This document shows, piece after piece, positions 7,702-14,649 of a DNA stretch of 17,402 bases. The notes below the pieces were generated by a model. That model made no database searches. It saw only the letters and a list, made by a program, of their open reading frames with translations, and was not told the origin of the DNA. The stretch spans positions 1 through 17,402 of IMG/VR virus record IMGVR_UViG_2617270979_000005. One strand, 5' to 3'. This DNA is from a virus. Its lineage: Duplodnaviria; Heunggongvirae; Uroviricota; Caudoviricetes. Within the stretch, counting starts at the first letter, position 1. Each line of letters opens with the position of its first letter. A program made the translations under genes and the position numbers.

Positions 7702-8388
7702 TCACTCCTTCTCTTCTTTTCCGTAGTGGAGTTGGCCAATTTTGATAAGAGGGCGTCCCTGAGATTTGCGGTGTAGATTGGTATCGCGCAGAGAATACAC
7801 ACAGCCACAATATTCCTGCTGATAGAATTTTTCGCGCTTGCTGATTTCAATCATACGGGACGAGCCGCCCTGCTTGCGCCAGTTATAATCCCAGTACACC
7901 ATACCCGGATAATGCGCAACAGCTCGCCGCCCACACTCGTTAACCTGCTGCATATTTTTCCAGCGTGAAATGCCCAGTGAACTGCTGATCACACTGAAAC
8001 CATTTTCAGCAGCGTACAACGCTGTCCGCTCAAAACGCATGTCAAAACACATGGTACAACGGATCCCCCTCTCAGGCTCCCATTCCATTCCTTTGGCACG
8101 TTCAAACCAGTTGTCGGTGTCGTAATCAGCATCGATAAACGGCACGCCGTGTTGTTCAGCAAAGCGAATATTTTCATCCTTACGAATTAAATACTCTTTC
8201 TGAGGATGAATGTTCGGGTTGTAGAAAAAGATGGTGTAGTCGATTCCCGAGGCCTGAAGCGCCTCCATCACTTCACCGGAACATGGAGCACAGCAAGAGT
8301 GCAGTAGTAGTTTGTTTGCCCCGTTTGGGAGTTCCAATTTAGGCCGTTTGAAATCAGCAATAGTCATAAATATTTTTATTGGGGTCAT
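7702..8388 (-). CDS. queH: QueH-like protein (DUF208, epoxyqueuosine reductase family)
   Basis: 228-aa ORF (ATG 8388; alternative ATG 8367; neither has a strong SD); family-defining motifs '[11 protein letters not shown]', '[10 protein letters not shown]' and 'YCGCVYS'. Family call from memory of DUF208. Confidence 0.75.
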
Positions 8389-11298: not shown

Positions 11299-11724
11299 TC
11301 AATGTACTGCCACAGCATTTCCTGCCGGGCCACCACGGTTCATCTGATTGAAACCGGCGATTGCCACTGCGACAAAATCATCAGCGTCTCTCACCAGTCG
11401 CTCCCGCGTCTCCACCAGCTCCCGAAAATAAGCTGAACTGTGGCTGCGCATTCTGGCCACCAGCAAAGGTGGCATTGCCTTTTCGATCGCTGGTAACAAC
11501 GCCTGAATTTTTTCAACTGCATCAGGGGTGTCTTTCTCTACCCAGCGGAAAATTTTCTGGGTATTACGGGCCAGGGCTTCCGGATGGCTGTCGTCGTACA
11601 GTTCCGGGAACGTCATCCCCAGTTCGAAATAAGTCCGGGCTATTTCAGCTGCTGGAACTTTCTCACCGTCTGGATACGCCCAGGCATTCATTGCCATGCG
11701 GATGTGTTCATGCTTGATTTTCAT
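11299..11724 (-). CDS. YdaT-like protein (Rac-type, proposed cII-like regulator/toxin)
   Basis: 141-aa ORF; ATG 11724 with GGGGGTGA RBS; N-terminus 'MKIKHEHI' resembles remembered Rac YdaT; directly downstream of the Cro-like gene. Confidence 0.65.
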   Translation of the reverse strand: MKIKHEHIRMAMNAWAYPDGEKVPAAEIARTYFELGMTFPELYDDSHPEALARNTQKIFRWVEKDTPDAVEKIQALLPAIEKAMPPLLVARMRSHSSAYFRELVETRERLVRDADDFVAVAIAGFNQMNRGGPAGNAVAVH

Positions 11725-11983
11725 GAATCACCCCCGCCTCTGGTTGTGTGTTAGCCTGATACTCGACAGGTAAGCCGTCGGTTGGGTTGGGATAAGTACT
11801 GCCATCAATCTCGTGCGGAGTTACTATCCAGCCTGTTGCTTCGCACCAGCGTAAAATTTTTTTCCCCGTAAGTTTCGCCCGTCCGGTAATGACATGGCTT
11901 ACCATCCCTTGGGTTACCCCAACAATTTCAGCAAAATGCTTCTGAGTTATACCGGAATGATGCAAATATTCTCCAAGATTCAT
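11708..11983 (-). CDS. Cro-like HTH protein (YdaS family)
   Basis: 91-aa ORF; ATG 11983 with GAGGTGA RBS; HTH 'ITQKHFAEIVGVTQGMVSHVITG'; divergent from the repressor gene. Confidence 0.7.
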   Translation of the reverse strand: MNLGEYLHHSGITQKHFAEIVGVTQGMVSHVITGRAKLTGKKILRWCEATGWIVTPHEIDGSTYPNPTDGLPVEYQANTQPEAGVIHENQA

Positions 11984-12090
11984 TGTTCACCTCATGTGAT
12001 GTCATCACGATCATTAATAGCATTGTTATTTTTAAAAGTAAATAGCATCACTATTTCAAAGAGATTAATAATCTTATTAGAATTGAAGGT
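11984..12090. promoter_or_regulatory. Divergent immunity control region with operator palindromes
   Basis: Perfect 13-bp palindrome GTGATG-T-CATCAC (11996-12008); two imperfect copies of AATAGCA-N-TGCTATT (12016-12030, 12041-12055); AT-rich -10/-35-like hexamers on both strands (tentative). Confidence 0.55.
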
Positions 12091-12591
12091 ATGAAAAGAA
12101 AATCCCTGTCAGAGATCGACCTGCAAGCCGCCCAGAGACTGAAAGAAATCTGGACGGCGAAAAAAAATCAACTAGGGTTAACCCAAGAGCGTGCGGCAGA
12201 AATTCTGGGATTTTCGACACAGGGAGCTGTAAGCCATTATCTAAATGGTCAGACACCTTTAAATCTTGAGGCTGTTATCAAGTTCGCAGGGTTGCTGCAA
12301 GTTCCTCCCGAGTCAATCAGACCAGATATGGCCGAGTTGTTACAAATTGTAAGGATGTATCCCCAAGAATCTGGGGAGGACAATGTTGTCACTATATCTG
12401 CAGATATGGAACAATCGGAAAACGAACTTCCGTTTAATATAGACCCCATGGAGCGGGATTTGCTCCAGACGTTCAGGGCTTTCCCCAAAGAAGATAAAGA
12501 GAAAATGCTTAAGGAAATGAAGGAGAAAAAAGAATCAATTGAAGAAATCGTTGCGCGATGGCTAGCTGCGCAAAAGGGTCGTCGCGCCTAA
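12091..12591 (+). CDS. Prophage repressor, XRE-family HTH (RacR/DicA-like, no S24 peptidase domain)
   Basis: 166-aa ORF; HTH 'LGLTQERAAEILGFSTQGAVSHYLNG'; divergent from the Cro-like gene; 5 of 10 Arg codons are AGA/AGG and 2 Ile codons are ATA. Confidence 0.8.
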   Translation: MKRKSLSEIDLQAAQRLKEIWTAKKNQLGLTQERAAEILGFSTQGAVSHYLNGQTPLNLEAVIKFAGLLQVPPESIRPDMAELLQIVRMYPQESGEDNVVTISADMEQSENELPFNIDPMERDLLQTFRAFPKEDKEKMLKEMKEKKESIEEIVARWLAAQKGRRA

Positions 12592-12608
12592 TCTGAGGAG
12601 GTAAAAAC

Positions 12609-12800
12609 ATGAGTACAGCCCTTTCCCCGATAATTTCTGAATTTGAAACAGTCGAACAAGAAAACAGCTATAACGAATGGTTGCGAACCAAAGTGGCAGC
12701 AAGCCTCTCAGATCCCCGTCCTGCAATTCCACATGACGAAGTAATGGCTGAAATGGAAAACCTTATTGCTCAATTAGCTGCAACGAACAGGAGTGAGTAA
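12609..12800 (+). CDS. Type II antitoxin (ParD/RHH-like) paired with the downstream ParE toxin
   Basis: 63-aa ORF; GAGGAGG RBS at 12594-12600; stop overlaps the toxin start (TAATG); family assignment by partner and size only. Confidence 0.65.
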   Translation: MSTALSPIISEFETVEQENSYNEWLRTKVAASLSDPRPAIPHDEVMAEMENLIAQLAATNRSE

Positions 12801-13090
12801 TGCTGCCCATTTTATGGCTACCTTCTGCACGTGATGATTTACGTCAGATCGTAGCCTATATTGCTAAGGAAAACCCTCCCGCTGCACGTAGACTAAAAAT
12901 ACGCATTGAAACATCAGTTTTGTCACTTACTGAACACCCTTATCTGTACCCACCGAGCGAAAGAGTTCCAAGTCTTCGTGAGATAGTGACTCATCCTAAC
13001 TACATAATACTTTACCGAGTAACAGCATCTAACATCGAGATCGTAAATGTAGTTCACTCACGAAGACAGTATCCAAACAAAACCTGTTAA
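12800..13090 (+). CDS. ParE/RelE-superfamily toxin
   Basis: 96-aa ORF; ParE-like pattern 'LWLPSARDDLRQIVAYIAKENPPAARRL … ILYRV … IEIVNVVHSRRQ'; translationally coupled to the antitoxin. Confidence 0.8.
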   Translation: MLPILWLPSARDDLRQIVAYIAKENPPAARRLKIRIETSVLSLTEHPYLYPPSERVPSLREIVTHPNYIILYRVTASNIEIVNVVHSRRQYPNKTC

Positions 13091-13103
13091 TCCTTCCTGT
13101 CAA

Positions 13104-13128
13104 CAACCACCTTCGGGTGGTTTTTTTC
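13104..13128 (+). terminator. Rho-independent terminator after the toxin gene
   Basis: AACCACC-TTCG-GGTGGTT hairpin followed by TTTTTTT (13121-13127). Confidence 0.7.
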
Positions 13129-13138
13129 TTGCCACGAT

Positions 13139-13153
13139 AATAGCACTGCTATT
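13139..13153. promoter_or_regulatory. Operator: perfect palindrome AATAGCA-C-TGCTATT upstream of the ydfA-dicB operon
   Basis: Perfect 7-1-7 inverted repeat; same motif as the two imperfect copies in the immunity control region. Confidence 0.55.
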
Positions 13154-13359
13154 TACATAATTAAATAGTAGTGGTATTGTTCATTCATCAACCCACCCCG
13201 CCCCACAGAACGCCAGGCAATACTTCGAGTTACCCGGCAGTGGTCAGGGGTTAAGTAGCCAGCCCGAGGCGTATGAACATGACGGCGGGAACACTTTATA
13301 TAACAGCGCAGCAGTTTTTTAGTTCCGCTACCCCGGCGTTAAGGGGAAATGAGGTCAGC

Positions 13360-14596: not shown

Positions 14597-14649
14597 TTTC
14601 TGGTGACGTTTGGCGGTATCAGTTTTACTCCGTGACTGCTCTGCCGCCC
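14597..14649 (+). ncRNA. dicF: DicF small regulatory RNA
   Basis: 53-nt stretch TTTCTGGTGACGTTTGGCGGTATCAGTTTTACTCCGTGACTGCTCTGCCGCCC followed by TTTTT matches the remembered DicF sequence; located between ydfC-like and dicB as in Qin. Confidence 0.85.

Follow-up and report, generated by a model that had tools for sequence, protein, structure and literature searches.

A predicted three-component toxin-antitoxin operon of the paaR-paaA-parE type in the immunity region of a lambdoid Escherichia coli prophage

The paaR-paaA-parE systems of E. coli O157:H7

Prophage CP-933P/Sp12 of Escherichia coli O157:H7 carries RAE2 (paaR2-paaA2-parE2), a toxin-antitoxin (TA) system that has been studied genetically and structurally (Hallez 2010; Jurenas 2021, PMC8630535; structures 3ZBE, 5CW7, 5CZE and 5CZF). 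According to the portion of PMC4803016 that cites Hallez 2010, paaR, paaA and parE are transcribed together, starting at a sigma-70 promoter 5' of paaR, and O157:H7 harbors two such systems as paralogues, with no cross-neutralisation by their antitoxins PaaA1 and PaaA2. In CP-933P, PaaR2 is the CI analogue and is translated from a leaderless mRNA, as determined by 5' RACE; YdaS and YdaT are the Cro and CII analogues, and a repressor-controlled promoter, PL933P, lies with its operators past the TA genes, in the same position as the PL-like promoter of the locus described below (PMC8630535). The same study reported that the CP-933P locus is bistable, that PaaA2 has no DNA-binding motif of any kind and decays via ClpAP and ClpXP, that ParE2 induces SOS, and that RAE2 matches ccdAB in stabilising a mini-F plasmid, through post-segregational killing (PMC8630535). 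The replacement of the lambda rexA-rexB genes by paaA2-parE2 is likewise published (PMC8630535; PMC9986795; and PMC4803016 in the portion citing Hallez 2010).

We analysed a window of 17,402 nucleotides, the whole stretch of IMG/VR record IMGVR_UViG_2617270979_000005 under study. A sequence-only reading of it had pointed to a gene pair downstream of a phage repressor, in the slot that rexA-rexB occupies in lambda, and had put it forward as a candidate addiction or defence module. The idea of the rexAB slot was already in print, since PMC9986795 states it for paaA2-parE2, and the pair is no new candidate: its arrangement was described in 2010 and dissected in 2021 and 2023, and in the E. coli genomes that carry the two genes, PGAP already annotates a type II TA. 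By homology, the window locus is a variant of the known and characterised paaR-paaA-parE three-component type II TA system. As a natural variant of a well-studied TA, it has little importance beyond annotation. The coordinates of its genes and signals, together with those of other features of the window, are collected in Table 1.

Gene identities, expression signals and operators

The predicted antitoxin matched the Pfam family PaaA2 (PF21217, 'stability determinant') with an E value of 1e-21 and 77 bits (cutoff 27), the 33-residue toxin-binding model covering residues 16-48 of its 63 amino acids, and it matched PaaA2 in the PDB (3zbe/5cw7) with an E value of 2e-22 and 38/54 identical residues. 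No ParD, RHH, Phd or HTH family was among its Pfam matches listed up to E 10; there the best other match was DUF2922 at E 0.066, so that no second family reached E 0.01. On these grounds we rejected the ParD/Phd/RHH-like assignment that had been proposed from the sequence, and class the antitoxin, by homology, as a member of the PaaA family lacking a DNA-binding domain. The protein also passes the NCBIfam model NF050103, to which NCBI gives the name 'RelB family antitoxin' (92.8 bits), and PGAP uses the same label. Since both Pfam and the PDB assign this very protein to the PaaA2 family, we take the RelB label to be a matter of naming; the PGAP name for PaaA proteins is an inconsistency that curators may want to note. 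Given that a PaaA-family antitoxin has no DNA-binding domain, the repressor encoded upstream would be the third component of the TA system and not a mere neighbour.

The toxin was correctly recognised as a ParE-family protein of a type II TA pair. It matched Pfam ParE_toxin (PF05016) with an E value of 6.6e-18 and aligned end to end with the crystallised ParE2 of E. coli O157:H7 (PDB 5cw7_B; E 5e-36, 60/92 identical, 65%). A RelE-type mRNA interferase was considered as a better label and rejected, because the NCBIfam model TIGR02385 (RelE_StbE) reached 27.6 bits, under its cutoff of 27.9, and the nearest solved structures all belong to ParE or 'plasmid stabilization' proteins. Against five homologous loci, and wherever dS was unsaturated and could be estimated, dN/dS was 0.05-0.15 for the toxin gene and 0.07-0.22 for the antitoxin gene; both are under purifying selection. 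These values, spanning 0.05-0.22, and the Pfam matches of both proteins indicate that the two are real genes and not chance ORFs.

Table 1 Features of the 17,402-nt window
Feature	Position	Strand	Remarks
IS1 transposase fragment	1-504	-	window edge
tRNA-Arg(tct)	879-955		
tRNA-Met(cat)	1056-1131		
DNA methylase, N6/N4	1181-2230		second DNA methylase
NgoMIV-family endonuclease	5507-6520	-	Pfam E 9.9e-127
C5 cytosine methyltransferase	6399-7523	-	E 4.2e-54
sok antitoxin RNA	7454-7634	-	Rfam
QueH epoxyqueuosine reductase	7702-8388	-	Pfam E 1.1e-65
ydaT, CII analogue	11299-11724	-	141 aa; PDB 3c4r E 2.4e-89, 8bt1 E 1.3e-78
ydaS-type Cro analogue	11708-11983	-	91 aa; divergent from repressor; HTH_3 E 9.4e-6
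Candidate YdaT operator, OM-like	11714-11731	+	TTGATT-N6-AATCAc; ydaS/ydaT junction
OR-like operators (predicted)	12016-12030, 12041-12055		15-bp palindromes AATAG-N5-CTATT; overlap divergent promoters
PRM-like promoter	12055-12083	+	TTCAAA-17-TAGAAT; consensus scan
Repressor ORF (paaR-type, CI analogue)	12091-12591	+	166 aa; stop TAA 12589-12591
Promoter-like site in repressor gene	12386-12415	+	TTGTCA-18-AACAAT, extended -10 TG; consensus scan
Shine-Dalgarno of antitoxin gene	12595-12601	+	GAGGAGG; read from the sequence directly
Antitoxin ORF (paaA-type)	12609-12800	+	63 aa
Toxin ORF (parE-type)	12800-13090	+	96 aa
Intrinsic terminator, t_imm analogue	13105-13122	+	AACCACC-TTCG-GGTGGTT, then TTTTTCTT; ends the paaR-paaA-parE operon
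OL-like operators (predicted)	13139-13153, 13164-13178		AATAG-N5-CTATT; just past terminator
OL/PL-like region	13139-13180	+	promoter TTTACA-17-TATTGT overlapping operators
DicF small RNA	14598-14649	+	76.7 bits

The layout of the three genes was as it had been described from the sequence. The strong Shine-Dalgarno motif GAGGAGG of the antitoxin gene lies 3 nt past the repressor stop and 7 nt ahead of the antitoxin ATG at 12609, the antitoxin and toxin ORFs have one base in common within TAATG, and the pair is followed by a terminator-like hairpin and TTTTTCTT (7-bp stem with 4 G-C pairs, TTCG loop, T-run; MFE -10.4 kcal/mol). The repressor and paaA genes are separated by 17 nt, and a signal scan found no terminator in this gap or elsewhere before 13105. 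Co-transcription of the repressor with paaA and parE is thus the expected state, given the short, terminator-free gap and the experimentally determined operon status of the homologous paaR2-paaA2-parE2. The -10 element of the PRM-like promoter ends 7 nt 5' of the repressor ATG, compared with GATAAT located 6 nt 5' of the ATG in paaR2 of CP-933P, so the repressor mRNA is probably leaderless as well. A further promoter-like match inside the repressor gene was set aside as a feature, being a bare consensus match within a non-conserved linker. Such a site could render TA expression partly independent of PRM, or of the repressor; repressor-independent TA transcription has been seen for RAE2 in both switch states (PMC8630535).

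These observations bear on the possibility of a canonical two-component ParD-ParE system that regulates itself and adjoins the repressor gene by chance. The toxin does belong to the ParE family, and the 'RelB family antitoxin' name given by PGAP and NCBIfam would suit such a system. However, the antitoxin, at 63 amino acids, matches the 33-residue PaaA2 model and otherwise, among Pfam matches up to E 10, DUF2922 alone; PaaA2 is reported to lack a DNA-binding motif (PMC8630535); a consensus scan found no promoter-like site within the 17-nt gap; and a PaaR-type repressor gene precedes the pair in 7/7 sampled E. coli loci and in phage Evi. As an antitoxin without a DNA-binding domain is incompatible with self-regulation, we give a two-component ParDE next to no chance of being the correct description.

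The repressor itself appears to be a composite. It matched Pfam HTH_3 (E 9.9e-10), and its residues 2-90 aligned to the N-terminal domain of lambda CI (E 1.5e-9, 34/86 identical). Its C-terminal part is of another kind: 33 of the last 48 residues are identical in the repressor of an O157 locus (L002 in our comparison set) and 24 of the 48 in PaaR2, and the C-terminal ~50 residues are similar to the C-terminus of DicA (NCBIfam, E 1.5e-7; BLASTP against residues 80-130 of K-12 DicA, E 2e-5). No S24 peptidase (autocleavage) domain was found in the 166-aa protein. By homology, then, the repressor is a lambda-CI-like HTH N-terminal domain joined to a conserved PaaR/DicA-type C-terminal module; its homology to PaaR1 and PaaR2 is partial, with an N-terminal domain of a different, CI-like type. 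This combination gives sequence-level support to the published claim, made on the basis of function, that PaaR proteins are CI equivalents. As the DNA-binding domain differs from those of PaaR1 and PaaR2, operator use by the window repressor is a prediction only.

A pattern search for AATAG-N5-CTATT returned five matches in the window versus 0.41 expected, a number that none of 200 shuffles reached. Four of these palindromes are predicted OR and OL operators for the repressor and YdaS, with an equal centre-to-centre spacing of 25 bp in the OR and OL pairs. By eye and by palindrome scan, no convincing third OR operator of this form overlapping PRM was seen. On the minus strand upstream of ydaS, TTTACT-17-TATTAA can be read by eye under the same operator arrangement. 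On the other side, the PL-like promoter, found by consensus scan, reads rightward into ydfA-ydfB-ydfC-dicF-dicB. The pair had been assigned to a slot equivalent to that of rexAB, and it does lie between the repressor gene and this OL/PL-like region, the position of rexA-rexB in lambda.

The divergent genes complete what resembles a lambdoid immunity region. The YdaS-type protein, whose gene has the position that ydaS has in CP-933P (PMC8630535), matched PHROG 35 ('transcriptional repressor', E 3.6e-20), and YdaT matched PHROG 163 ('CII-like transcriptional activator', E 1.2e-44). YdaT binds TTGATT-N6-AATCAA at the end of ydaS (PMC9986795). The window contains one match to this site, with one mismatch; 20 of 200 shuffles also give a match, so the count is weak, and the position agrees with OM of CP-933P, the site of a PRE-like alternative operon start. 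Beyond these genes lie a DnaT-domain replication gene (Pfam), likewise divergent from the repressor, and a lambda-P-like replication gene, while 3' of the terminator we found ydfA (DUF1391), ydfB, ydfC, the DicF RNA, dicB and an exonuclease gene. From this gene content we conclude that the TA operon belongs to the immunity region of an E. coli prophage of the lambdoid, Qin/CP-933-like kind. The DicF small RNA is placed in the PL-side operon, 5' of dicB, as in K-12 Qin.

The remainder of the window carries several accessory genes. The NgoMIV-family endonuclease and the C5 cytosine methyltransferase together span 5507-7523 on the minus strand and form a type II R-M cassette within the nin-like part of the prophage. 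The sok antitoxin RNA scored 61 bits, just above its gathering score of 59; it suggests a hok/sok type I TA, in which case the prophage would have two TA systems. The queH gene, for a tRNA-modification enzyme, is another accessory gene that the prophage carries. In most related prophages, the match to the window begins only at ~870.

Mosaic structure and distribution

For comparison, seven other E. coli loci (L002-L008) and the corresponding locus of phage Evi (L010) were fetched. The three-gene order with divergent ydaS-ydaT was present in all seven loci and in phage Evi. Locus L007 serves as the RAE2 archetype, with a ParE that shows 100% identity to ParE2 in the PDB and a PaaR that starts MQKKE, as published. 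We take L002 to be, probably, paaR1-paaA1-parE1 (RAE1) of the O157:H7 prophage CP-933M. The window antitoxin is 62% identical to that of L007, 84% to that of L002 and 92% to that of L004; the corresponding values are 65%, 85% and 95% for the toxin, and 35%, 43% and 90% for the repressor. L004 is of the same type as the window copy.

Sliding identity along the locus resolved three segments. Two are immunity-specific: 11740-12450, comprising the 5' part of ydaS, the operators, and the N-terminal domain and linker of the repressor, and 13086-13167, comprising the terminator and OL. Between them, the segment 12450-13086 is common to all types and holds the C-terminal module of the repressor, paaA and parE. 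Across differing immunity specificities, the TA genes therefore stay together with the 3' part of the repressor gene as a single conserved block, and at least four repressor types are found ahead of paaA-parE (window/L004/L008; L002/L003; L005/L006; L007). The repressors of L005 and L006 are 98% identical, whereas their antitoxins and toxins are each 73% identical, L005 being RAE2-like and L006 RAE1-like; with the same repressor and a different TA class in each, the two loci indicate that the TA cassette recombines independently of immunity type. The mosaic boundaries, like the gene identities, their order, the signals, the operators and the purifying selection, are established here for this locus.

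Within the common block, divergence from RAE2 is concentrated in two places. The C-terminal tail of PaaA retains 2/11 identical residues versus 36/43 before the tail, and the 5' part of parE has 38-50% nucleotide identity over 12740-12937. The comparison suggests where PaaA/ParE pairing specificity resides: the PaaA tail and the 5' part of parE are its plausible seat.

We next considered the distribution of the locus in 5426 complete E. coli genomes. The window-type repressor segment occurred in 72 of these, and at least 80% of the 1.6-kb region was likewise present in 72, which suggests that the window-type repressor always comes with the TA pair, assuming that the equal counts refer to the same genomes. 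Any paaA-parE homologue was found in 842/5426 genomes, and in 615/5426 at a coverage of at least 80%. PaaA homologues were also present on 122 plasmids, mostly of Pseudomonas and Acinetobacter, one record labelling the gene 'stability determinant'; this occurrence fits a stabilisation role. In sequenced phages, there was no near-identical DNA covering the locus, and a protein search recovered ParE only from phage Evi, where it is of the RAE2 type. The record of this phage (LR597642.1, 24917-25192) contains a paaR2-paaA2-parE2-type cassette in which parE bears no annotation.

Proposed function and relation to known systems

All in all, the locus is in our view, with a probability of roughly 0.88, a type II TA operon of the three-component paaR-paaA-parE kind within a lambdoid immunity region, the addiction steps being taken from homologues. 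In a lysogen, the repressor, as the CI analogue, would be expressed from the PRM-like promoter, probably from a leaderless mRNA, and the transcript would extend across the 17-nt gap, take in paaA and parE and end at the terminator. PaaA, a short protein without a DNA-binding domain, would wrap around ParE and neutralise it; since it cannot bind DNA, control of the operon would be handed to the phage switch. There, the repressor and the Cro-like YdaS would compete for the AATAG-N5-CTATT sites at OR and OL, with an alternative promoter driven by the CII-like YdaT. If the immunity region were lost or replaced, the labile antitoxin would be degraded and the stable ParE freed to damage DNA metabolism (the homologue induces SOS), such that the cell would be killed or arrested. 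The net effect would be addiction, with the module stabilising the prophage and notably its immunity region.

Co-transcription, toxicity, PaaA lability and post-segregational killing are expected here by analogy with the characterised RAE1 and RAE2; for toxicity, neutralisation and co-transcription of the window allele itself, the homologues that serve as models are 62-85% identical. One published observation counts against the addiction operon as the best explanation: in CP-933P, no toxin activity, measured as SOS, was seen in either switch state (PMC8630535), so that any role other than post-segregational killing is hypothetical.

Of the two roles first suggested for the pair, addiction agrees with the published phenotype of the homologue, while defence found neither a PADLOC match nor support in the literature. 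A role that is mainly anti-phage would make the pair a counterpart of RexAB, acting in superinfection exclusion or abortive infection: an incoming phage would release ParE, by silencing transcription of the host or the prophage or by setting off the breakdown of PaaA, and the toxin would then bring the infection to an abortive end. The pair does occupy the rexA-rexB slot and is expected to share its expression with the lysogenic repressor (PMC9986795), the prophage region holds other conflict cassettes (the NgoMIV-type R-M and hok/sok), and phage defence has been linked to type II TA systems as a class. Position is weak evidence, however, because the slot is a general moron site; we found no report of such activity in the literature on PaaA2 and phage defense, and plasmid stabilisation is the only phenotype that we found reported for the homologue (PMC8630535). 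Nor did PADLOC return a match for any of the three proteins, on which ground we rejected membership in a known defence system. A chiefly anti-phage role is, in our estimation, quite improbable.

The expected expression together with the lysogenic repressor in the rexAB slot also raises a broader idea, that the TA is a phage-triggered abortive-infection or exclusion module, or else a guard against related lambdoid phages that exchange the immunity region, killing the recombinants that result. We regard this as unlikely. Were it true, specificity classes that do not cross-neutralise would be defined by two co-varying elements, the C-terminal tail of PaaA and the N-terminal hairpin of ParE, and these classes would shuffle independently of immunity type, as L005 and L006, with the same repressor and different TA classes, illustrate.

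The locus resembles RAE2 in its gene order, its slot between OR and OL, and its divergent ydaS-ydaT (YdaT 83% identical); in a -10 element 6-7 nt before the repressor ATG and a conserved C-terminal module in the repressor; in the pairing of a ParE toxin with a PaaA antitoxin that has no DNA-binding domain; and in the ydfA...dicB or kil genes and exonuclease downstream. It differs from RAE2 in its repressor, which is 35% identical overall and has a predicted CI-like N-terminal domain (PaaR2 is said to show no similarity to CI in sequence), and in its predicted operators, AATAG-N5-CTATT instead of the GTTTAGTAA half-sites of RAE2. Among the reference loci, L002 has the closest TA (84% and 85% identity for antitoxin and toxin), and its flanks are alike, with ydaT 88% identical and ydfA-ydfB downstream. 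Its repressor has a different DNA-binding domain (43% identity overall) and its Cro-like YdaS differs too (37%), which makes L002 a different immunity type.

Compared with cI-rexA-rexB of lambda, the locus has the same succession of OR/PRM, a repressor gene (leaderless in lambda and probably so here), two accessory genes that in the lysogen are (here by expectation) expressed along with the repressor gene, a terminator and OL/PL, and its repressor has an N-terminal domain homologous to that of CI. Unlike in lambda, the repressor is without an S24 autocleavage domain, and neither PaaA nor ParE is related to RexA or RexB; no Rex family appeared in the Pfam, PHROG or PADLOC results, so that only the position is equal. 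K-12 Qin has the same downstream genes, ydfA-ydfB-ydfC-dicF-dicB, and the C-terminal region of its DicA is homologous to the repressor C-terminus. As the sequence-only reading had it, the TA pair is absent from Qin, in which ydfA directly follows dicA. Finally, canonical parDE systems (RK2; parDE2 of Vibrio cholerae) likewise combine a ParE-fold toxin with replicon stabilisation, but there the RHH domain of ParD autoregulates the operon, whereas PaaA lacks this domain and a separate repressor regulates (PMC8630535).
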